Source of the DNA: Patescibacteria group bacterium UBA3531
GTDB taxonomy: Bacteria; Patescibacteriota; Minisyncoccia; Phycocordibacterales; UBA3531
Reading direction: 5' to 3'
Length of the DNA: 64,000 nt
Assembly (NCBI GenBank): GCA_002376885.1
Contig: DFOW01000004.1
Span: forward strand, 1,018 to 65,017
Position 1 is the first letter of the stretch. The number at the start of each line of letters is the position of its first letter. The notes beneath the pieces were generated by a model, which was not told where the DNA came from, ran no database searches, and worked only from the letters and a program-made list of their open reading frames with translations. Shown in pieces: positions 581-63,600 of the stretch. Both the position numbers and the translations under genes were made by a program.

Positions 581-887
581 TGGCTCCGCGGGCAGGACTC
601 GAACCTGCAACCAATACGTTACATCGATCCTATTGTTTCTAATAGGGATGGACTATATCATCATCCTTCCAATTATGATTAGGATGCAAGGCGCTTCGAC
701 CCCAAAATTGGGGGCTACTCCCGTAAGGGATAGTCTCTGAACCTTCCAAATAAAATCTGGCTTGGCTGCTGATTACCATCGTCTTCACGTTACGGCTTCC
801 AGCAATTCACCTTGTTTTTCAACCTACGTTTCCGTAGAAAGCTGCGTATCGCCACAGCGTACTGCTCTACCATTGAGCTACCGCGGA
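581..887 (-). tRNA. tRNA-Asn(GUU) interrupted by a group I intron in the anticodon loop (5' exon 854-887, intron 622-853, 3' exon with encoded CCA 581-621)
   Basis: Minus-strand 5' exon TCCGCGG-TA-GCTC-AATGGTA-GAGC-A-GTACG-CTGT. The 3' exon TAA-CGTAT-TGGTT-GCAGG-TTCGAGT-CCTGC-CCGCGGA-G-CCA completes the acceptor, D, anticodon and T arms. The spliced anticodon loop is CUGUUAA, i.e. GUU. The exon ends in U and the intron ends in G. Confidence 0.75.
622..853 (-). ncRNA. Group I self-splicing intron (232 nt) inside the tRNA-Asn gene
   Basis: On the minus strand it contains group I core elements P-like AAUUGCUGGAAG, Q AAUCAGCAG, R GGUUCAGAGACUA and S GAUAUAGUCC. The internal guide sequence GCAGC near the intron 5' end pairs with exon GCUGU, with a U.G wobble at the splice site. 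The terminal nucleotide is G. Confidence 0.7.
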
Positions 888-9486: not shown

Positions 9487-10205
9487 CCCGCAAATTCTTC
9501 CATTTTAATATTGTCGGGAGAGACCTCAAGCTCTTCTAACACTTTATTCATGGCGCGCACCATAGCAGGTGGACCCACCACGTAAAAAATACACGTATCA
9601 ATATCTGTTAAATTCTTTTTGAGCATATCGGATGATATGTAACCGTGCTCAAGATCCTGGCCACTTACCTCTTCGTTGGTTACGGTATGCAACAAATCCA
9701 TTATTTTGTTTTCTTTCTTTTCATGGAGTTCAGATAAAAATGGAGCGTCTCCAAGTGTACGAGTAGATAAAACAAGCGTCATGGGGCGTTTTATTTTCTC
9801 TTCTTCAGCACTCCGCACCATACTCATAATAGGAGTAATGCCAATCCCCCCTACTAAAAATACTGCTCGTTTGTTGGTGTCCTGATGAAGCAAGAATGCG
9901 CCAAAAGGACCGTCTAAAAGAATCTCTTCGCTTTCTTTTAAGTTTCCTAAACACCTTTTAAATGCACTGTCTCGCATTCGTATGGCAACCTCAAGATATT
10001 CATGCTTGGGGGTACTTACTAAAGAAAAAACGCGGGCGTCTCCTTCATCATCTGTCTCTTTTGGATTAATAAGGGTGAGCTCTATGTATTGCCCTGGCTT
10101 ATAGGTAAACCCATCAGGTTTTGTAAAAAAGAAGGCCATAGTGCCGTCAGCAACCCTCTCTTTTTTAACGAATGTAATAGTTTGTTTATCCATGACGACC
10201 ATCAT
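9456..10205 (-). CDS. FAD/NAD(P)-binding oxidoreductase (ferredoxin-NADP reductase-like)
   Basis: RxFS FAD-binding motif (ARVFSLVS) and NAD-binding GGIGITP. Confidence 0.75.
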   Translation of the reverse strand: MMVVMDKQTITFVKKERVADGTMAFFFTKPDGFTYKPGQYIELTLINPKETDDEGDARVFSLVSTPKHEYLEVAIRMRDSAFKRCLGNLKESEEILLDGPFGAFLLHQDTNKRAVFLVGGIGITPIMSMVRSAEEEKIKRPMTLVLSTRTLGDAPFLSELHEKKENKIMDLLHTVTNEEVSGQDLEHGYISSDMLKKNLTDIDTCIFYVVGPPAMVRAMNKVLEELEVSPDNIKMEEFAGYEKEKGRTE

Positions 10206-10270: not shown

Positions 10271-10771
10271 ATGGAAAATAAAACGCTTGTTATTATCATC
10301 CTTATTGTTCTTGCTATTTTAGTCATTGGATTTGCCTTCTTCCAGTCATTCCGCGGAACCACAGACACACCAACCAACGAAGAATCCGATCCTGAAGAAC
10401 TGGTTTACCCAACCATAAGCCCCGAGCAAGTCGTGCAAGAGTTTTATGATTGGTATTTAACAGAAGGAAACGCTCTCCCAAATGAGAACTTTGCAACAAG
10501 TTCATCTCTTACAGCTCGATTTATAAATTCAGTACAAGCACAGATCGCAACAGAAGAAGAGTTCGATCGTGATCCATTTGTGTGTTCAGCAGAATTGCCA
10601 CTTGAAGTTTCAACAAACTCAACCAATATCAATGATAGACGAGCAAACGTTGTCGTTGATTCTGTTCTTTCAGAAGTTGAGATGATTTCGTTTATTGCAG
10701 AACTTGATTTGACCGAAGATGCGAGCGCGTGGCAAATCAATAATGTTGTGTGTTTTGTAAAAGGGATCTAG
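10271..10771 (+). CDS. Membrane-anchored hypothetical protein
   Basis: N-terminal TM helix followed by a soluble domain of unknown function. Confidence 0.4.
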   Translation: MENKTLVIIILIVLAILVIGFAFFQSFRGTTDTPTNEESDPEELVYPTISPEQVVQEFYDWYLTEGNALPNENFATSSSLTARFINSVQAQIATEEEFDRDPFVCSAELPLEVSTNSTNINDRRANVVVDSVLSEVEMISFIAELDLTEDASAWQINNVVCFVKGI

Positions 10772-13214: not shown

Positions 13215-13242
13215 TTGAAAACTCAAATATTTTTTGTATAGT
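13215..13242 (+). promoter_or_regulatory. Sigma-70-like promoter (TTGAAA-16-TATAGT) driving a GC-rich mini-gene
   Basis: Canonical hexamers directly upstream of the GC-rich ORF at 13274. Confidence 0.4.
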
Positions 13243-13273
13243 GTAGCCAGACCTTTAACGGAAGGGGGATCCG

Positions 13274-13498
13274 TTGGATCAAATCGGCGTGGAAGATGCT
13301 GGGGCACAGGCTGCCGTTTACCACTTCAAGGACGACTCTCGCTGTGGCGAGATCGTACCGAAAGGGAACGGTACCAAACGGTGGGAGTGCAACGGCTGTG
13401 GAATCTTCATCGCGGAGGGCAGTCTTCGATTCGCCCTACCGGTTCACCCAACCCAGATGATCTCTCCTGAGATCGAAACGAGGGCTACCGCACGGTAG
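13274..13498 (+). CDS. GC-rich cassette gene: small hypothetical protein (TTG start)
   Basis: SD GGAAGGGGGA lies 4 nt upstream. The ORF is 62% GC in an AT-rich genome and ends in a perfect 11-bp hairpin terminator. The product contains C..CNGC. Confidence 0.4.
   Translation: MDQIGVEDAGAQAAVYHFKDDSRCGEIVPKGNGTKRWECNGCGIFIAEGSLRFALPVHPTQMISPEIETRATAR
13473..13497. terminator. Bidirectional hairpin terminator (gagggctaccg-cac-cggtagccctc)
   Basis: Perfect 11-bp stem flanked by T-runs on both strands, between the converging cassette gene and glyQS. Confidence 0.6.
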
Positions 13499-13511
13499 CC
13501 CTCGAACCTTT

Positions 13512-17282: not shown

Positions 17283-17520
17283 CAAAAAACGGGACTCTCT
17301 ACAAGGAGGCAAGGTTAAAGGCCCGGCCGCCGAAGCGAACCGGGCCTTCTTCAACCTGAGAGTGCTCCAGCCGGAGCAGTTAGACGTGTCAGTGACATCC
17401 TTTGGCGTGAGGGTAGCCACATCGGGCCTCTCCACTTGCAGCCGGTCTCAGGCGGGGATGGTTTGAGACAACGAAGCCGGTTGAACCACCACCCTGCACG
17501 TGCTGGAAGCAGTCTAACAA
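17283..17520. other. GC-rich (~60%) ORF-poor intergenic island; candidate structured ncRNA or decayed GC-rich cassette
   Basis: Sharp GC jump between two AT-rich minus-strand genes. The minus strand has a GC hairpin (ggcccgg...ccgggcc) followed by a U-run. Internal direct repeats GGAGCAGTTAGAC and GGAAGCAGTCTAAC are present. Confidence 0.3.
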
Positions 17521-18344: not shown

Positions 18345-18435
18345 GAACTCGATTATACCAGACAAACTTGCAATAAAGGCCCTAGTTATATAAATTGGAT
18401 ACGGACTGGCAATCATGCCTGAAAGGAGCAGTACC

Positions 18436-18903
18436 GTGCAGGAGCACACCCATTCGTGGTCTGGCACCCAGATCGAAGGTTTCCGGCTGGTTGCCGGAGC
18501 AGAGATCCGAGGTACCGACCGCTACGATTCCTCGACGGGCAAGTGGGAGCCTCCGCCCCCTGCTGTCGGCCGCAACATGGACGACCCCTACGATCGGGGC
18601 CTCACCCTCGAGGAAGGGTGCCCGACCATGTGGATTCGTCCGGAGCTCTCCGACAACACGAAGGAGCTTCTCATGCTCCTCCGAGCGCGGCTTCTCGACA
18701 TCCATGAGAAGAGCATGACGGCTACGCGTCTCCCGATCGGGAGGTGGGAGCAGTATCCCGTCCCCAGCCGAGAGAGCGTGCAGGAGCTTCGTGACTGCGG
18801 GCTCGTCGCCCCCTACCAGGGCAAGACCTACGAGACCGAGTTCACGACGGTTCTCCGCCTGACGGAGCTCGGAAGGGAGACCGCCGAAGGACTCCTCTCC
18901 TGA
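18436..18903 (+). CDS. GC-rich cassette gene: hypothetical protein (GTG start after SD AAGGAG)
   Basis: About 62% GC. Upstream is TTGCAA...TATATA. It is followed by the hairpin terminator ggccccggccgcg...cgcgccggggcc. Confidence 0.45.
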   Translation: MQEHTHSWSGTQIEGFRLVAGAEIRGTDRYDSSTGKWEPPPPAVGRNMDDPYDRGLTLEEGCPTMWIRPELSDNTKELLMLLRARLLDIHEKSMTATRLPIGRWEQYPVPSRESVQELRDCGLVAPYQGKTYETEFTTVLRLTELGRETAEGLLS

Positions 18904-18912
18904 TCAACCAGA

Positions 18913-18953
18913 GGCCCCGGCCGCGTTCACACGCGCCGGGGCCTTTCATTTTT
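18913..18953 (+). terminator. GC-hairpin terminator (copy 1 of a duplicated terminator)
   Basis: ggccccggccgcgttcacacgcgccggggcc followed by tttcatttttg. Confidence 0.6.
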
Positions 18954-19044
18954 GTTGACAATATATTTTTTATATTGTAATTTTTTTTCAGGTGTACACG
19001 CGACGCAGTCGAGAGACACTGTCGCAAAAACACAGGAGCAAATC

Positions 19045-19698
19045 GTGTCTAGAAAAAACCTTGGACTGGACGTTGGACAAGCTCAGGAGCTCAAGCTTGC
19101 CTTCAGGCGTCATGATTGGGACAATGAGCTCATCAAGCGACTTTGCGAATCGAATATCCTGGGCGACGCCCTCGACATCCTTCGTGGAGACGCGCAAGCC
19201 GTTCCGATCGAACGTGTCGTCGACCTTGGAGCGGAGCCTGAGATCAAGGACGGTAGTGTGGTCGTCAAGCACGTGAAGCAGGGGGTGAAGCCTTGGCGCG
19301 ACATTCGTCTCGCCCTCATCGACCCCAGGGATCTGCACTACACCAGACTGGGGATCCCTTACGACCAAGAACCGCCTGATCAGAGGATCATGGAGATCAA
19401 CCCTCGAACCATGAGGCCACACTTCCTGAAGGGACAGCGCCCAGCGAACATCCTCATGAGGGATTTTCTCCTCGAGATCCCTCATCTGATCCCTCACGAC
19501 TGGGTCCCCAGGGCCCCAATCGTGTTCTGGGGGACGGTCTGCAAGAGCGATACCACCTACTGGGTTCCCGGGATCAACCAGGACTTCGGCGGGTGGTACG
19601 CTCACGATTGCCGGGTGGAGATGCCTCGCGATCGCATCATGCTCCGTAACTACGACAACCCCTGCGTCGTCCTGACGTCGGCACCGTCGATTGTCTGA
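19045..19698 (+). CDS. GC-rich cassette gene: hypothetical protein (GTG start after SD CAGGAG)
   Basis: About 60% GC ORF followed by a near-identical copy of the 18913 terminator. Confidence 0.45.
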   Translation: MSRKNLGLDVGQAQELKLAFRRHDWDNELIKRLCESNILGDALDILRGDAQAVPIERVVDLGAEPEIKDGSVVVKHVKQGVKPWRDIRLALIDPRDLHYTRLGIPYDQEPPDQRIMEINPRTMRPHFLKGQRPANILMRDFLLEIPHLIPHDWVPRAPIVFWGTVCKSDTTYWVPGINQDFGGWYAHDCRVEMPRDRIMLRNYDNPCVVLTSAPSIV

Positions 19699-19709
19699 AG
19701 TGTTCTGAT

Positions 19710-19750
19710 GGCCCCGGCCGCGTTCATGCGCGCCGGGGCCTTTCGTTTTA
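19710..19750 (+). terminator. GC-hairpin terminator (copy 2)
   Basis: ggccccggccgcgttcatgcgcgccggggcc followed by tttcgtttt. Confidence 0.6.
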
Positions 19751-19765
19751 CTATTATTCCCCTAG

Positions 19766-19891
19766 CACAACTTTCAAAAGAGCTCTCGGAGCCCGAGCGG
19801 GCCGGTGTCCCGCTTGCAGGACGAGCGAGGGTGAGAGCGAGCAAAAAATCCCCGCTGGGGGATTTTATTGCGTGTCTTTTGAAAGTTTGTG
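19766..19891 (+). repeat. MITE-like GC-rich repeat, copy A (TIRs CACAACTTTCAAAAG ... CTTTTGAAAGTTTGTG)
   Basis: Shares the core AGAGCTCTCGGAGCCCGAGCGGGC...GAGCGAGGGTGAGAGCGAG plus a 3' hairpin/T-run with copies at 34582, 45986 (inverted) and 49193. Confidence 0.65.
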
Positions 19892-34003: not shown

Positions 34004-34053
34004 TAGCGGCTTTTGATACTACAGAAAAGCATTTTTAGTGTCAACAGAACTTT

Positions 34054-34082
34054 ATTGACTTTGAATACAAGAGGAGTAGAAA
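34054..34082 (+). promoter_or_regulatory. Sigma-70-like promoter (TTGACT-16-TAGAAA) for a GC-rich two-gene cassette
   Basis: Hexamers directly upstream of SD GGAGG and the ATG at 34103. Confidence 0.35.
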
Positions 34083-34102
34083 TAAAGGTGGAGGAAGTCG
34101 CC

Positions 34103-34306
34103 ATGCGCTGGGCAAGCCAAACTGTTTCAGATGAAGAGCGGGATGCGCTCGATGCAGCGCTTCACGCAACCGAAGGTCTCGGTGAAGACGATCTGTCGAC
34201 GAAAAACATGAGGCGTGCAATGTTCGTTCTGCTCATTGTCGCTGCTCTCGTGATTGGACTCGGCGTCATCAAGCCGGCACTCGAGAACGGTGGATCATTC
34301 CTGTAA
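34103..34306 (+). CDS. GC-rich cassette gene: small single-TM protein
   Basis: MRWASQTVSDEERDALDAAL...FVLLIVAALVIGLGVI with SD GGAGG. About 60% GC. Confidence 0.4.
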   Translation: MRWASQTVSDEERDALDAALHATEGLGEDDLSTKNMRRAMFVLLIVAALVIGLGVIKPALENGGSFL

Positions 34307-34317
34307 AGGAGGGCCAA

Positions 34318-34524
34318 ATGTTCCGAGCAAAGACTAGCAACCCCAATGAATGGGGCTGGGGCGGGGGCAGGTACGCCGACTACGAGGAAGAAGAGCCGTT
34401 CTACCTCGTGGACGCCGTGATCGTTCTCGTTGCGGTGTGCGCATACGGCGTATGGTGGCTCATCTCTACGCCGTTCAAGAAGGCGCGTGCCGCCATCGTC
34501 AACCGCCGCGCGCGGAACTGCTAG
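34318..34524 (+). CDS. GC-rich cassette gene: small single-TM protein
   Basis: MFRAKTSNPNEWGWGGGRYADYEEEEPFYLVDAVIVLVAVCAYGVWWLI. About 62% GC. Confidence 0.4.
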   Translation: MFRAKTSNPNEWGWGGGRYADYEEEEPFYLVDAVIVLVAVCAYGVWWLISTPFKKARAAIVNRRARNC

Positions 34525-34581
34525 CCAAAGGGCGCGAACGTTCATTCGTTCGCGCCCTTGCTGTATATTTTCCAACGTTAC

Positions 34582-34690
34582 GTTTTTAAGAGCTCTCGGA
34601 GCCCGAGCGGGCTGGTATCCGCAGGATGAGTGAGGGCGAGAGCGAGAAAAAAATTCCCGCCGGGGAATTTTATTTCGTGTCTTAAAAATG
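34582..34690 (+). repeat. MITE-like GC-rich repeat, copy B
   Basis: AAGAGCTCTCGGAGCCCGAGCGGGCTGG...GAGTGAGGGCGAGAGCGAG plus the aattcccgccggggaatt hairpin. Flanked by inverted TTTTTAAGA. Confidence 0.65.
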
Positions 34691-38911: not shown

Positions 38912-39012
38912 AGTGGCTCTAGTATACGGATTTATGCTTGTTTTGCAATATAAGGGGGTTTTAGTGTCGATATTTCGTCATTCGTGCCAAAAAATATACA
39001 GCACCCCCCATA

Positions 39013-39041
39013 TTGACAAATAGCATACTTTATGTTAGTAT
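39013..39041 (+). promoter_or_regulatory. Sigma-70-like promoter (TTGACA-17-TAGTAT) for a GC-rich mini-gene
   Basis: Perfect -35 hexamer, 17-nt spacer, and TAGTAT -10. Confidence 0.45.
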
Positions 39042-39114
39042 ATCTGCAGTTAAGACGAGTCAAAGTTCTGGGTTGGAACTCCCTGTCTTGTTGTTCTCTA
39101 AGGAAAGGCAACAC

Positions 39115-39282
39115 ATGAGCATTCCCTTCCAGGAAAGGATTACGGAACGCGTCAAGGGAACGGAGCGACGGCGGATCCAGGAGATCCAGAACCTCCATCC
39201 GTTCTTCTTCCGCCGTAGCTTCCTGCTCGCCCTCTCGGTGATCCTGACGGTCTTCTACTACATCGAGTTCTTCCCGAAGTAA
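39115..39282 (+). CDS. GC-rich cassette gene: small single-TM peptide (55 aa)
   Basis: MSIPFQERITERVKGTERRRIQEIQNLHPFFFRRSFLLALSVILTVFYYIEFFPK with SD GGAAAGG. Followed by the 39306 hairpin terminator. Confidence 0.4.
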   Translation: MSIPFQERITERVKGTERRRIQEIQNLHPFFFRRSFLLALSVILTVFYYIEFFPK

Positions 39283-39305
39283 CGGGGACTGCCACGCCCA
39301 GGGCT

Positions 39306-39351
39306 CGCCCATGGAGGCCACCACACAAACAACTTTGGTTCTGTGTGTGGT
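39306..39351 (+). terminator. GC-hairpin terminator
   Basis: ggccaccacacaaacaactttggttctgtgtgtggtggcc followed by a T-run. Confidence 0.6.
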
Positions 39352-39468
39352 GGCCTTTTTCTTATTTCGATATCCCCAAGAAACCACATTTGGGAGTGTC
39401 CACCCTAAACAATTTTTCTGCGAAAAACTGAGAGGGCAAGCAGGAAAATAATTAAAAAATTTCTCGTA

Positions 39469-39591
39469 GAAACACAGTTTGAAGTGCTGCCGCAGACGAT
39501 TTTGATTGGTCCACCCTTTGGGTGGAAAATCGTCGAGGATAAGGAAACACCACCGCTGGAGTGGGGTTTCCGGTGCTTCAAGCTGTGTTTC
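39469..39591. repeat. 123-bp element closed by 19-bp terminal inverted repeats (GAAACACAGTTTGAAGTGC / GTGCTTCAAGCTGTGTTTC) with internal hairpins; candidate sRNA or MITE
   Basis: Perfect or near-perfect long-range pairing of the ends. Internal stems: gacgatttt...aaaatcgtc, ccaccc-ttt-gggtgg and ggaaac...gtttcc. Confidence 0.4.
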
Positions 39592-39658
39592 TTAAAAAAT
39601 AAAATAAATAGTAGCGGCCCGGGCCCCGTGTGGGGGCCTCGGGCCGCGCGATGACGCT

Positions 39659-39850
39659 CTAGGGCGCCTTTCCCTTCTCCTCGGGCGGAGTCTGTTGTGC
39701 GGAGCCCAACGGCTCCACACCCTCCGGGTGATCGTCTTCGAAGGACCCCTCGCGGCGCCCGTCGAATGGGCGCGCTTGCCGGGACGGCATGGGATCTCTC
39801 GGCGGCGACTTTTCGCGAGGGCTACCGCCCCCGTTTCGAACAAAAGACAT
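39659..39850 (-). CDS. GC-rich cassette gene: small Gly/Pro/Arg/Glu-rich disordered protein
   Basis: About 66% GC. SD GGAGG lies 10 nt upstream of the ATG, with an upstream TTGCAG-17-TTTAAT promoter-like site and a downstream GC hairpin plus T-run on the minus strand. Confidence 0.35.
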   Translation of the reverse strand: MSFVRNGGGSPREKSPPRDPMPSRQARPFDGRREGSFEDDHPEGVEPLGSAQQTPPEEKGKAP

Positions 39851-39922
39851 CGTCTTCTTGCCTCCGTGGGTTTTAGGGTACCCACCATTAAACACAAACT
39901 CCCTTATTTCTGCAAGGGAGTT

Positions 39923-40534
39923 TTAAACAATGTTTCCAAGGAAGCTCTTCCTGTGTATTGGGCACGGTTTGTGTTTTTTTATGAGCTTCCGATGAAGCTC
40001 GGTTCCGTAGCCTTTATGCTCCTCAAACATATAGTGCGGATAACGGAGCGCAAACCCTTCCATTTTTTTATCGCGTGATACTTTTGCCACAATTGATGCG
40101 AGAGCAATTAAAACCTCTTGTTCATCTCCACGTATGATCGTTTCTTGTTGGGTGTAAAAAGCAGGTGCCTTAAGCCCGCCGTCTAATAAAATATGAGACC
40201 TCTCTGGATGCACTCCCAGCCGGTTTAAACACCGTTTTGTTGCTTTATAAATTGCTGGATTGATCCCTTCCCTATCTATAAAGTCAGGGCCAGAGAACGC
40301 AACAGCATATGAGAGCTCTTTTTGCACATGAAGCTTATGGAGTTCCTCAAAAATTTCTCTTCTTTTTTGCCCCGAGAGTTTTTTTGAATCTTTTACTTCA
40401 CGAAAAAATGAGAGTTTGGGAGATCTGAGTGGGGCAACCACCACCCCAACTGCTACAGGCCCCGCCAAAGGACCTCTTCCGGCCTCATCAACCCCCACAA
40501 AAAAGTGGTTAATGCTTGCTATTTTTTTGCTCAT
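39923..40534 (-). CDS. rnhB: Ribonuclease HII
   Basis: VGVDEAGRGPLAGPV catalytic motif. Confidence 0.95.
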   Translation of the reverse strand: MSKKIASINHFFVGVDEAGRGPLAGPVAVGVVVAPLRSPKLSFFREVKDSKKLSGQKRREIFEELHKLHVQKELSYAVAFSGPDFIDREGINPAIYKATKRCLNRLGVHPERSHILLDGGLKAPAFYTQQETIIRGDEQEVLIALASIVAKVSRDKKMEGFALRYPHYMFEEHKGYGTELHRKLIKKHKPCPIHRKSFLGNIV

Positions 40535-43778: not shown

Positions 43779-44009
43779 ATGCCCAAACGATCCAAGTGGG
43801 GCTCGACCTGCCAAATCCCACACTGCGGAAAGAACGAAAACCGAGACCATGTCCGGATGACATTCTTCCGGAGGGGGGCCGGCGTAGTCTTCTTGTTTCT
43901 CTGCAGATGGCATCGGGCCATGAACACTCGAGCAATCCGCGAGAAGCGCGACTTCGGTCCGTTCATGTACACCGGTCGGGATAAGAGCCCGTCGCGCCAA
44001 GCTGCGTGA
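43779..44009 (+). CDS. GC-rich cassette gene: small Cys/His-containing protein
   Basis: About 60% GC with SD GAGGAGGG. MPKRSKWGSTCQIPHCGKNENRDH... It is inserted between dnaE and thrS and ends with a GC hairpin. Confidence 0.4.
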   Translation: MPKRSKWGSTCQIPHCGKNENRDHVRMTFFRRGAGVVFLFLCRWHRAMNTRAIREKRDFGPFMYTGRDKSPSRQAA

Positions 44010-45985: not shown

Positions 45986-46113
45986 CACTAACTTTCAAAA
46001 GATACGAAATAAAATTCCCCAGCGGGAATTTTTTTCTCACTCTCACCCTCGCTCATCCTGTAAAACAGGACACCGGCCCGCTCGGGCTCCGAGAGCTCTT
46101 TTGAAAGTTGTGT
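45986..46113 (-). repeat. MITE-like GC-rich repeat, copy C (inverted orientation)
   Basis: The reverse complement matches copy A nearly end to end, including the TIRs CACTAACTTTCAAAAG / CTTTTGAAAGTTGTGTT. Confidence 0.65.
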
Positions 46114-46246
46114 TAGGAAATAAAAAGTTTATTAGCATCCACAGGAGATTTGCTTGGTTAAAAAATCTCCGAGGATAGAGCGAGTCTCCGCCGGAGAGAC
46201 GAGCGTCTGGTAAACTTTTTATTTACACAACACACTCTCAAAACAA

Positions 46247-62077: not shown

Positions 62078-62428
62078 TTACTTCTTTTCTTTCTTGCTTG
62101 CCCCTTCGAAATCTTTTGATTTCGTGTCGGAGTTGGTTCCTCCGGCTTTTCTAACCTTTTCTTTTTTTGCCTTAGGAGTACCTGCTTTTGCCATTCGAGT
62201 CTTGAACTTCTCTACTCGCCCCGCTGTATCTACCACAGTCTCTTTCCCGGTGTAAAAGGGGTGTGATGCGCTTGAGATTTCTACTCTAAAGAGGGGGTAT
62301 TCTTTGCCGTCAGTCCATTTATCAGTTTCTTCAGTCTCTACGGTTGAGGCAATCAAAAACTTCTCGCCACTGGTATTGTCGAAAAAAATAACTGGTCGGT
62401 AGTTTTCTGGGTGAATTTCCTTTTTCAT
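62078..62428 (-). CDS. rpmE: 50S ribosomal protein L31 (type B) with a basic C-terminal extension
   Basis: [18 protein letters not shown]31 N-terminus. The start was moved to the internal Met. Confidence 0.8.
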
Positions 62429-62494
62429 TACCCAGAGACTATATACAAATACGTCCCTAAAATCAAGGTTTTTAGGCCAAAACACCCCCTATAC

Positions 62495-62523
62495 TTGACA
62501 AATATATACAAATATGCTATTAT
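62495..62523 (+). promoter_or_regulatory. Consensus sigma-70 promoter (TTGACA-17-TATTAT) driving a GC-rich two-gene cassette
   Basis: Perfect -35 and near-perfect -10 about 60 nt upstream of SD AAGGAGA and the GTG start. Confidence 0.5.
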
Positions 62524-62585
62524 AAGGGTAGAAACATAGGGAAAGGCATTGTGCCTCCCCTACTGCTCACCACAAGGAGAACATC

Positions 62586-62828
62586 GTGCACTACGAAACG
62601 TTCGTTCGCGACCTGAAGACCAACGAGCTCAACATCGCCGGGCTCATCTTCACTAGCGTGCTCTTCGTGACCTTCGGCCTGATCTACTGCTCCGGCGGCG
62701 CCGCCTTCCTGCCCATCATCATGTTCGGCGCACTGGCGGCCACGATCGCCCTCGGCGAGCTCCGCTACAACAAGAAGCTCCACGAGAAGTGGTTCAAGCA
62801 CGCCAACGAGGGCACGATCTGGACCTGA
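62586..62828 (+). CDS. GC-rich cassette gene 1: small two-TM protein (GTG start), paralogous N-terminus (M-HYETFV)
   Basis: About 60% GC. SD AAGGAGA lies 6 nt upstream of the GTG. TM helices LIFTSVLFVTFGLIY and FLPIIMFGALAATIAL. Confidence 0.45.
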   Translation: MHYETFVRDLKTNELNIAGLIFTSVLFVTFGLIYCSGGAAFLPIIMFGALAATIALGELRYNKKLHEKWFKHANEGTIWT

Positions 62829-62852
62829 TCACACCTGACAGGAGATGAGACC

Positions 62853-63014
62853 ATGGAGACGTTCGTTGACCTCTGGTCGTCCTACGCCATCTGCTACGCT
62901 ATCGGGTTCATGCTCTTGGTTCGCCCGAAGCTTCCGGCAGGTAGCGTCTGGATCAAGGTGTTCTACGGATCGCTTCTGGTCTTCTCAACCGTCGCGTTCC
63001 TACACCAGACCTAA
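62853..63014 (+). CDS. GC-rich cassette gene 2: small two-TM protein (METFVD...), paralog of gene 1
   Basis: SD AGGAGA upstream of the ATG. Shares the ETFV N-terminal motif with the upstream ORF. Followed by the terminator aaagccacttcactcgaagtggcttt plus a T-run. Confidence 0.4.
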   Translation: METFVDLWSSYAICYAIGFMLLVRPKLPAGSVWIKVFYGSLLVFSTVAFLHQT

Positions 63015-63035
63015 GCATGTCTTAAGAACTGCCCA

Positions 63036-63070
63036 AAGCCACTTCACTCGAAGTGGCTTTCTTCATTTTT
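63036..63070 (+). terminator. Rho-independent terminator
   Basis: aaagccacttcac-tcg-aagtggcttt followed by cttcattttt. Confidence 0.6.
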
Positions 63071-63126
63071 CATATCTTTCCAAGAAACCATATTTGAGAG
63101 CGTCTGCCCAAATGTGGTTTCTTAAA

Positions 63127-63600
63127 TTAAGATCTGATTTTTAAAAGTGCCTCAAAAAATCCTTGACCCCAAGCGAGAACTTTACCTTTGGGAGCCACCA
63201 AGGCTTCTGCCTTTTTCTTAAATTTTGTATATTCTTCTAATGCTTCTTCCTCGATATCTTCCCAGACATCACCTATCACGCAATCAAATTTTCTCTTGGA
63301 GTTGTATTCATAAAAATCTCCTATCTGTACATCTCCATGGACAAAACCATCTCTTTTTTTCAACTCTTCAATAAGATCTCCAAGCTTTTCTATCGTAAGA
63401 ACAGATGTCACTTTTTTGTTTTCTAATAGATACCCCTGAACCGCCCCAAGGCCATAACCAGCAACTAAAACATCCCCGTATGCTTGGTCAGCGATCTTTT
63501 TTTGAGCACGACGTTCGACAGGAATATCCCACATCCATAAATAGTCATCTATCCACAGAAATCGATGTCCTTTTTGTTCTAGAATCTCTATTTTCGGCAC
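63127..63600 (-). CDS. Hypothetical protein (possible small Rossmann-like methyltransferase/spermidine-synthase-like fold)
   Basis: VLVAGYGLGAVQGYL glycine-rich motif and DCVIGD. Weak assignment. Confidence 0.35.
   Translation of the reverse strand: MPKIEILEQKGHRFLWIDDYLWMWDIPVERRAQKKIADQAYGDVLVAGYGLGAVQGYLLENKKVTSVLTIEKLGDLIEELKKRDGFVHGDVQIGDFYEYNSKRKFDCVIGDVWEDIEEEALEEYTKFKKKAEALVAPKGKVLAWGQGFFEALLKIRS

Follow-up and report, generated by a model that had tools for sequence, protein, structure and literature searches.

A GC-rich two-gene cassette for predicted membrane peptides beside rpmE in a patescibacterial genome, and its sister cassettes

We analysed a stretch of 64,000 nucleotides from Patescibacteria group bacterium UBA3531 (contig DFOW01000004.1, positions 1,018 to 65,017; hereafter the window) and focused on a block of ~0.6 kb and ~0.6 GC that adjoins rpmE, the gene for ribosomal protein L31. 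We suggest, with a probability of roughly 0.6, that this locus is a recently acquired, self-expressed accessory cassette resembling the morons of phages and encoding two orphan membrane peptides. In kind the focal cassette is ordinary, i.e. a small horizontally acquired ORFan unit; the noteworthy part is the pattern of similar units that recurs genome-wide.

The focal operon and its products

Between positions 62550 and 63000 the GC content is 0.56-0.64, compared with a window mean of 0.42. Two plus-strand open reading frames (ORFs) lie in this block: gene 1 (62586-62828, stop codon 62826-62828) starts with GTG and encodes 80 aa (MHYETFVRDLKTNELNIAGLIFTSVLFVTFGLIYCSGGAAFLPIIMFGALAATIALGELRYNKKLHEKWFKHANEGTIWT), and gene 2 (62853-63014, stop codon 63012-63014) starts with ATG and encodes 53 aa (METFVDLWSSYAICYAIGFMLLVRPKLPAGSVWIKVFYGSLLVFSTVAFLHQT), with a spacer of 24 nt between the stop codon of gene 1 and the ATG of gene 2. 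The GC contents of the first, second and third codon positions (GC1/GC2/GC3) are 0.51/0.38/0.94 in gene 1, where 76 of 81 codons have G or C as their third base (binomial p=1e-11), and 0.48/0.39/0.80 in gene 2 (43 of 54 codons, p=2e-4), against a GC3 of 0.30-0.44 (about 0.35) in host genes. The same kind of pattern, 0.63/0.39/0.72, is found in B2, a gene of another cassette in the window that belongs to a genuine protein family.

The operon is equipped with a complete set of predicted expression signals. A consensus scan places a promoter module at 62483-62524 on the plus strand, back-to-back with the promoter of rpmE (-35 element at 62466-62461 on the minus strand), with the -35 element TTGACA at 62495-62500, a 17-nt spacer and a TG-extended -10 element TATTAT at 62518-62523. 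With a start site deduced from the position of the -10 element, the 5' untranslated region would span ~56 nt (62530-62585) and is predicted to fold into a hairpin at ~62537-62562; a minus-strand terminator-like match at 62560-62540 is the complement of this leader hairpin. The Shine-Dalgarno (SD) sequence of gene 1, AAGGAGA at 62574-62580, lies 5 nt before the GTG at 62586 and is unpaired in the centroid fold, while the minimum-free-energy structure puts its 3' end in a weak 3-bp helix and leaves the start codon open. Gene 2 has the SD sequence AGGAGA at 62840-62845 on the plus strand, 7 nt before its ATG at 62853. The operon ends in an intrinsic terminator (63035-63070, plus strand) consisting of an 11-bp stem (AAAGCCACTTC/GAAGTGGCTTT), a 4-nt loop and then CTTCATTTTT; the hairpin at 63035-63060 together with the T-run has a folding free energy (dG) of -16.7 kcal/mol and a z score of -4.4. 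On the minus strand, the consensus scan found no promoter between 62530 and 63130. A host tRNA promoter in the window has the sequence TTGACA-17-TAGTAT and, therefore, the signals of the cassette are compatible with the host polymerase.

The first-pass annotation of this DNA had described a GC-rich two-gene operon for small membrane peptides, located between rpmE and a minus-strand gene and driven by a "perfect" TTGACA-17-TATTAT promoter, and most of this description stands: the locus is predicted to be a compact plus-strand unit, it is GC-rich, both SD sequences are followed by the expected GTG and ATG start codons, the terminator is strong, and the two flanking genes are as described. The promoter elements, too, are where they had been placed, but they match 11 of the 12 consensus positions and not all 12.

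Both gene products are predicted to form hairpins in the membrane. By Kyte-Doolittle hydropathy the gene 1 product has hydrophobic stretches at residues ~14-37 and 35-60 and a basic C-terminal tail (ELRYNKKLHEKWFKHANEGTIWT), and the gene 2 product has hydrophobic stretches at ~7-23 and 32-50 with an RPKLPAGS loop between them and no charged tail. Single-sequence AlphaFold (AF2) models are helix-turn-helix hairpins for both, H3-35/H39-75 for gene 1 (predicted local distance difference test score, pLDDT, 73) and H2-22/H29-52 for gene 2 (pLDDT 83), in agreement with the earlier proposal of two transmembrane (TM) helices per peptide. The N-termini M-HY-ETFV and M-ETFV had also been read correctly. 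By contrast, the proposal that the two genes form a duplicated, paralogous pair fell: BLASTP gave no alignment, and the Smith-Waterman score of gene 1 against gene 2 is no better than that of shuffled sequences (p=0.38, and p=0.34 without the N-terminus). The two peptides have only ETFV(R)DL in common, directly after the start, and its coding DNA, GA[A/G]ACGTTCGTT(CGC)GACCT, is identical at 17 of 18 nt with one 3-nt (codon) indel. The motif may be a small duplicated start region or, alternatively, have a function at the N-terminus or in translation initiation; homology of the whole proteins does not follow from it.

Both peptides are orphans in all databases that we searched. No homologue was found in a word-indexed search of 5.8e9 proteins, and a full HMMER search against 1.84e9 representatives gave no real homologue; its sole match (P0078) is a translated tandem repeat scored by summing 14 stretches and was discarded as spurious. 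Similarly, tblastn against phages (50,697 phage records) and plasmids returned nothing, the IMG/VR search was empty as well, blastn with the DNA of the block gave no match, metagenome contigs of the JGI (Joint Genome Institute) returned only the same contig, PDB sequences and Foldseek against PDB gave no match, and neither peptide matched a PHROG up to E=1. Gene 1 gave three profile matches, to Pfam 8xMP (E=0.027, 14.7 bits versus a cut-off of 30), to KwaA in PADLOC (E=0.008 over 34 residues) and to MerF in NCBIfam (E=0.015, 15.1 bits versus a cut-off of 50). We rejected membership in these families, all three matches being below the curated thresholds and gene 1 having a single Cys as opposed to the vicinal Cys pairs of MerF; all three lie on the TM hairpin and are attributed to its hydrophobic composition.

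Sister cassettes and the case for horizontal transfer

The focal operon is one of six GC-rich cassettes in the window (focal and B to F), and a seventh (G) lies just past the window end on the same contig. This context changes the reading of the focal locus. The ORFs of the five sister cassettes inside the window have a GC3 of 0.54-0.84, and most are accompanied by a promoter-like site, an SD sequence and a hairpin terminator. An analogous GC-rich, SD-led cassette with promoter and terminator is found in the related complete genome CP174360 (UBA2103), where it is divergent from rpsO, and essentially no such cassettes were seen in 12 loci of other genomes of the candidate phyla radiation (CPR) and of DPANN archaea.

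Cassette D (39002-39408, plus strand) is divergent from rpmF, the gene for L32, and has a promoter TTGACA-17-TAGTAT at 39013, the SD sequence AAGGAAAGG, an ATG at 39115, a 55-aa single-TM peptide with its stop codon at 39282, and a terminator at 39315-39356 that is followed by a 3' module held in common with the focal cassette. The pair B (18368-19749, plus strand), between xth and rpoD, comprises B1 (18436-18903, GTG start, 155 aa) and B2 (19045-19698, GTG start, 217 aa), the latter with a promoter at 18955 and a conserved hairpin in its 5' untranslated region at 19000-19026; near-identical terminators follow the two ORFs, at 18913-18952 and 19710-19749. Cassette C (34040-34560, plus strand) is divergent from tRNA-His/Gly genes and encodes two single-TM peptides, C1 (34103-34306, 67 aa) and C2 (34318-34524, 68 aa, GC3 0.81), ahead of a terminator at 34530-34557. 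Cassette E (43779-44009, plus strand), between dnaE and thrS, has the SD sequence GAGGAGGG, an ATG and a basic ORF of 76 aa with a GC3 of 0.71. Cassette F (13215-13500, plus strand) is the weakest member: it has a promoter-like site at 13215, a Cys-rich TTG-initiated ORF (13274-13498, 74 aa, GC3 0.64) and a terminator hairpin, and is without an SD sequence by the regular expression used. Finally, cassette G, ~2.3 kb beyond the window end, has a ATACTTGACT-17-TATTAT promoter and an 88-aa plus-strand ORF and is divergent from rplY.

The cassettes are positioned and oriented in a recurrent manner. The focal cassette, D and G are back-to-back with the promoters of the stand-alone ribosomal-protein genes rpmE, rpmF and rplY, respectively, and C is back-to-back with a tRNA operon. 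All ten ORFs of the seven cassettes are on the plus strand, most host genes are on the minus strand, and five cassettes are antiparallel to both of their neighbours (p ~0.008 for the orientation bias if orientation were random). Because the cumulative GC skew falls steadily across the window, the plus strand is probably the lagging strand. As a separate observation, the promoter/start regions of rpmE and rplY are themselves 84% identical over 44 nt (62426-62467 versus L001 2831-2873) and have in common an element TTGATT...TAtAGaGTCTCTGGGTA-ATG, i.e. a ribosomal-protein promoter module.

Two flanking modules are common to the focal cassette and cassette D, whose leaders, ORFs and terminator stems are unrelated. 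The first is a 42-nt promoter module, CACCCCCyATA(C)TTGACAAATA...TAkTATA, at 62483-62524 and 39002-39042 (alignment score 35 versus a maximum of 27 in 300 shuffles). The second is a post-terminator module at 63053-63123 on the plus strand, of which 63053-63112 aligns with 39350-39408 of cassette D over ~60 nt, starting in the 3' arm of the terminator (score 49, with no shuffle above 27). The module continues through ATATC..CCAAGAAACCAyATTTGrGAG, and its motif CCAAGAAACCAYATTTGRGAG occurs twice in the window versus 0 expected; a degenerate third copy is found at cassette G beyond the window. In the focal copy an imperfect 15-bp palindrome (63082-63096 / 63109-63123; dG -20.8, z -6.6) ends 4 nt from the stop codon of the convergent gene to the right. 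Neither flank motif has a copy in IMG/VR.

The cassettes also differ from the host genes in their signals for translation initiation. An SD sequence precedes 9 of the 10 cassette ORFs, compared with 5 of 34 long host ORFs under a lenient search that allowed any start in the first third, and none of the 7 called genes adjoining the locus. CP174360 shows the same contrast, with an SD sequence at 2 of 12 genes. In many host genes, e.g. rpmE, rplY, rpmF and rpoD, a hexamer resembling a -10 element lies 5-20 nt upstream of the start codon, which suggests that host mRNAs are predominantly leaderless or have short leaders. We found no paper linking Patescibacteria with both leaderless mRNAs and SD sites.

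Indications of where such cassettes come from are provided by B2. Of its 77 homologues, all that are named belong to Paceibacterota, Parcubacteria or other Patescibacteria; the closest (50-55% identity) are on contigs of 51-58% GC on which core genes including rpsO have a GC3 of 0.6-0.8. At least some cassettes are thus exchanged among Patescibacteria, with higher-GC lineages or their mobile elements as plausible sources, and such an exchange would fit the frequent transfer of genes of unknown function published for this group, in which horizontally acquired regions are common and ~62% of genes are without an assigned function (PMC12455944). Two further observations concern the surroundings of B2. 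Its leader hairpin, GCGACGmAGTCGArAGACACTGTCGC, is conserved in three genera at a protein identity of 46-52% (window 19000-19026, L007 ~9945-9972 and L024 ~1245-1272) and is a candidate cis-regulatory element of this ~200-aa Patescibacteria-specific family, which is without a Pfam domain. Moreover, B2 is bracketed in the window by the duplicated terminators (40 nt, 92.5% identity between 18913-18952 and 19710-19749) and in CP174360 by a direct repeat of ~48 nt that includes the hupA terminator (L007 9856-9905 versus 10664-10710), an arrangement that hints at insertion or recombination at terminators.

Combining these data, we suggest a model in which the ~0.6-kb focal unit would have been acquired by horizontal transfer into the intergenic region upstream of rpmE, probably recently, the donor being presumably a Patescibacterium of higher GC content or a mobile element of such a bacterium. 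In this model, host RNA polymerase would use the predicted promoter, the 56-nt leader would leave the SD sequence of gene 1 open for translation, and both peptides would be made from one mRNA, each entering the cytoplasmic membrane as a two-helix hairpin. Cassettes that carry their own expression signals could slot between host genes without disturbing them and could in this way be exchanged in the Patescibacterial gene pool. Provided that both genes are functional, the two hairpins might form a small membrane oligomer that changes the permeability of the envelope or guards against such a change; we put this forward tentatively, as possible rather than probable. With low confidence, such an oligomer would point to a toxin/immunity-like or holin-like accessory pair rather than to a metabolic role.

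In phages, a moron of the type described by Hendrix is an additional gene that is situated between two others, deviates from them in base composition and has a promoter and a terminator to itself. The focal unit resembles morons in its predicted promoter-ORF-terminator layout, in a GC content unlike that of its neighbours, in its intact flanks and in its small accessory products, which in morons are often membrane proteins; it differs in being flanked by core cellular genes, in the lack of a detectable prophage and in the recurrence of the cassettes at many chromosomal sites. As the cassette lies among core cellular genes and not in a phage genome, we refer to it as moron-like only. In phages of the T4 type, mobile regulatory cassettes termed PeSL, for promoter-early and stem-loop, flank ORFans and mediate modular shuffling. 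Similarly, conserved promoter- and terminator-associated modules bracket the unrelated small ORFs of the focal cassette, D and G, and the repeats around B2 are alike in this respect; the differences are that the genome is cellular, that there are only three examples of the common frame, and that nothing points to recombination products.

The focal cassette has the atypical composition expected of a horizontally acquired islet, with a GC content of 0.61 versus 0.42, a GC3 of 0.94/0.80 versus ~0.35 and SD-led genes in a largely SD-less host. It resembles the islets and ORFans described for Patescibacteria in its deviant composition within a streamlined CPR genome, as does B2 in circulating only among Patescibacteria, and it differs from those islets in that the cassettes here are without an integrase or other mobility gene and are SD-led as opposed to the SD-less host genes (PMC12455944). 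Compared with usual genomic islands the cassettes, with one or two genes and 0.3-1.4 kb, are far smaller.

Several GC-rich or repeated elements were noted beside the cassettes. Between cassette D and the RNase HII gene, a block at 39440-39925 (probably on the minus strand) is ORF-poor, reaches 68% GC, folds with a dG of -218 kcal/mol (z -7.8) and ends in a minus-strand hairpin and T-run; it had no Rfam or ARAGORN match and is a candidate for a large structured RNA, which might be a divergent form of RNase P RNA or of tmRNA. A second intergenic block (17290-17500, up to 61% GC), between the gene for a 392-aa membrane protein and xth, has no convincing ORF and no Rfam match and may be a small structured RNA. 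At 629-863 (minus strand), in a GC-rich patch close to the start of the window, there is a group I intron (Rfam RF00028, 89 bits, E=2e-21). A repeat of ~100-130 nt with 81-90% identity is present at 19761-19891 (plus), 34588-34683 (plus), 45986-46117 (minus) and L001 2166-2308, always directly 3' of a host gene (rpoD, smc, thrS and a FAD-oxidase gene) and in constant relative orientation; it opens with a hairpin/T-run terminator (AAAATCCCCnnGCGGGGATTTTTT) and could be either a repeat associated with terminators or a small RNA derived from 3' ends. In cassette D, a 20-nt inverted repeat with 90% complementarity (39220-39239 versus 39427-39446) has one arm in the TM-coding part of the 55-aa ORF and the other 187 nt downstream, beyond the terminator. 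By our own estimate ~3e-4 such 20-nt pairs are expected by chance in 600 nt, and the repeat could be a target site like those of type I antitoxins or a long-range mRNA structure.

Genomic setting and alternative explanations

The window has the gene content of a cellular chromosome (rpoD, dnaG, smc, dnaE, thrS, RNase HII, L32, L31, RF1 and tRNAs), and the genes near the focal cassette are rpmE, prfA, a methyltransferase-like gene and rplY. To the left, rpmE (minus strand; Pfam Ribosomal_L31, E=7e-25) is followed by prfA; to the right, a convergent minus-strand gene of 157 aa (63127-63600) has a weak match to the methyltransferase-like phrog_15480 (E=2e-10). The exact protein encoded by this neighbour is found on 10 public contigs, of which we retrieved six for comparison, some from the Tara Oceans assemblies deposited in ENA and NCBI and others from Logan, where two sequencing runs had been assembled; cluster names point to TARA_078_MES_0.22-3 (Tara station 78, mesopelagic) as the marine source sample. 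Since the GC-rich block is present in all six contigs from ENA, NCBI and Logan data, and is 100% identical over 731 bp, an assembly chimera is ruled out. In contig L003, 21 mismatches bunch at the contig end within prfA, outside of the block. As an aside, relatives of the 157-aa neighbour (45-59% identical) are scattered over CPR bacteria (Saccharibacteria, Falkowbacteria) and DPANN archaea (Nanoarchaeota, Woesearchaeota, Aenigmatarchaeota) without conserved synteny, and none adjoins rpmE; this distribution suggests inter-domain exchange among ultra-small organisms.

Several points weigh against a recent acquisition of a functional, self-expressed unit. The promoter match is not beyond chance, as the window has 3 sites with at least 11 of 12 consensus positions versus 1.8 expected. 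All copies of the block are 100% identical, and purifying selection on gene 1 and gene 2 cannot show in them. Among 12 related loci we found neither an empty-site allele nor a syntenic relative, and it is composition only from which the proposed insertion is read. There is neither a mobility gene nor a target-site duplication beside the cassette, the only flanking direct repeats being 12-nt AT-rich or T-rich ones that we judged to be due to chance. The flanks common to this cassette and D may belong to the intergenic DNA of the host and not to a mobile unit. Lastly, the GC3 of 0.94 in gene 1 is above that of any Patescibacterial gene examined.

A serious rival, although we consider it unlikely, is that the block is inert foreign DNA, a young and effectively neutral acquisition in which the ORFs are intact only through youth. 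The extreme, unameliorated codon usage would be expected of such DNA, no homologues were found and there is no polymorphism to show constraint. This explanation has to accommodate that both ORFs have kept a start codon with a well-spaced SD sequence, that promoter and terminator are intact and that the same architecture occurs at least seven times, six in the window and one past its end, and again in another genome. Moreover, a streamlined genome is expected to purge useless DNA, a point of established knowledge that was not tested here.

The functional roles offered by the first-pass annotation, i.e. holin/antiholin, bacteriocin/immunity or toxin/antitoxin, gained no positive evidence, and each fails at least one defining feature. 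A two-peptide bacteriocin of class IIb was rejected, neither N-terminus having a hydrophilic GG leader and the flanks containing no transporter. We regard as quite unlikely a type I toxin-antitoxin-like system or another small membrane toxin restrained by a small RNA or a partner peptide. The peptides are small, hydrophobic and intergenically encoded, as would befit such toxins, the promoter and the terminator are strong, and the leader is long; several sister cassettes encode single-TM peptides, and in cassette D such a peptide of 55 aa is combined with the 20-nt, 90% complementary segment 187 nt downstream. In the focal unit, however, no antisense promoter was found within or after the operon, inverted repeats are of at most 10 nt and thus at chance level, the SD sequence of gene 1 is predicted to be accessible, unlike in typical type I toxin mRNAs, no antisense RNA gene was found, and there are no homologues, PADLOC giving only the weak KwaA match. 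Type I toxin peptides usually have fewer than 60 aa; gene 2, with 53 aa, is in this range, whereas gene 1, with 80 aa and two TM helices, exceeds the typical size.

It is very unlikely that the locus is a prophage remnant encoding a holin, alone or with an antiholin, or that it is strictly speaking a phage moron. The gross features of gene 1 (80 aa, two TM helices, a charged C-terminal tail) are like those of class II holins, and an autonomous cassette of deviant composition would be in keeping with a moron. Against this, there is no family match in PHROGs and no tblastn match in the phage records or IMG/VR, no endolysin, integrase or other phage gene lies within several kb, gene 2 is without a charged tail, and a dual-start motif is absent.

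GC-rich blocks in AT-rich genomes are classically RNA genes. That the focal block is a structured non-coding RNA in which the ORFs are incidental is nevertheless most improbable. The block is GC-rich and intergenic with a promoter and a terminator, its folded transcript is somewhat more stable than shuffled sequences (z = -2.7) and the genome has other GC-rich, ORF-poor and strongly structured blocks, e.g. that at 39440-39925; but the z score of the latter, -7.8, shows how much weaker the focal fold is, no Rfam family matches the focal block up to E=10, an extreme three-base periodicity (GC3 0.94/0.80, GC2 0.38) falls exactly in the two frames that are preceded by SD sequences, and both frames give clean TM-hairpin peptides.

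Least credible of all is that the true gene is the 93-aa minus-strand ORF (62520-62801), the longest ORF in the block and the one annotated by public gene callers on all six contigs, given that its GC1/GC2/GC3 of 0.85/0.36/0.51 mirrors a high-GC3 gene on the opposite strand, that its product is acidic, of low complexity and without a hydrophobic segment or a Pfam or NCBIfam match, that no SD sequence (as read from the sequence) or promoter is present on that strand, and that the plus-strand promoter, both SD sequences and the terminator would be left unexplained. An overlapping plus-strand ORF of 99 aa has no hydrophobic segments, no domains and an odd charge. Judged by codon-position composition and signals, the two plus-strand ORFs are the genes and the 93-aa minus-strand ORF is a shadow ORF.

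The public annotation at this locus is accordingly wrong in calling the antisense ORF, as it does for every contig. This ORF is also present in protein collections, where the extra members of its cluster vary only in having V or M at the position of the start codon. In cassette G, an 88-aa ORF has been called opposite the 88-aa ORF that is supported by SD sequence, promoter and terminator (L001 2391-2657), probably the same mis-call. High-GC3 cassettes in AT-rich genomes may be mis-called systematically and be invisible to protein-level searches. The wrong choice of strand at this locus also means that relatives in similar contexts may be under-represented in protein databases.

Implications for Patescibacteria

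Going beyond the moron-like cassette that we favor, the focal operon may be a member of an undescribed class of self-expressed cassettes of Paceibacteria-like Patescibacteria. Members of this class may be GC-rich promoter-leader-SD-ORF-terminator modules, set against an AT-rich and largely SD-less core and bracketed by conserved regulatory modules; they may be on the lagging (plus) strand, preferentially back-to-back with the promoters of stand-alone ribosomal-protein genes or of tRNA genes, and may move between lineages by recombination at the modules. Taken jointly these features make up a proposal that we consider doubtful. If it were true, the cassettes would carry small membrane or secreted proteins used in the episymbiotic lifestyle, among them the products of genes 1 and 2 as a pair acting on the membrane.

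With this locus, two further orphan peptides of small size and predicted membrane location join the large pool of uncharacterised accessory genes of CPR bacteria. What makes it worth following is the recurring cassette architecture, its strand bias and its tie to ribosomal-protein promoters. Two gene architectures coexist in this genome, AT-rich core genes without SD sequences and GC-rich, SD-led cassettes with sigma-70 promoters. If this contrast is general, it would provide a simple sequence signature for recently exchanged genes, possibly including host-interaction factors, in Patescibacteria.

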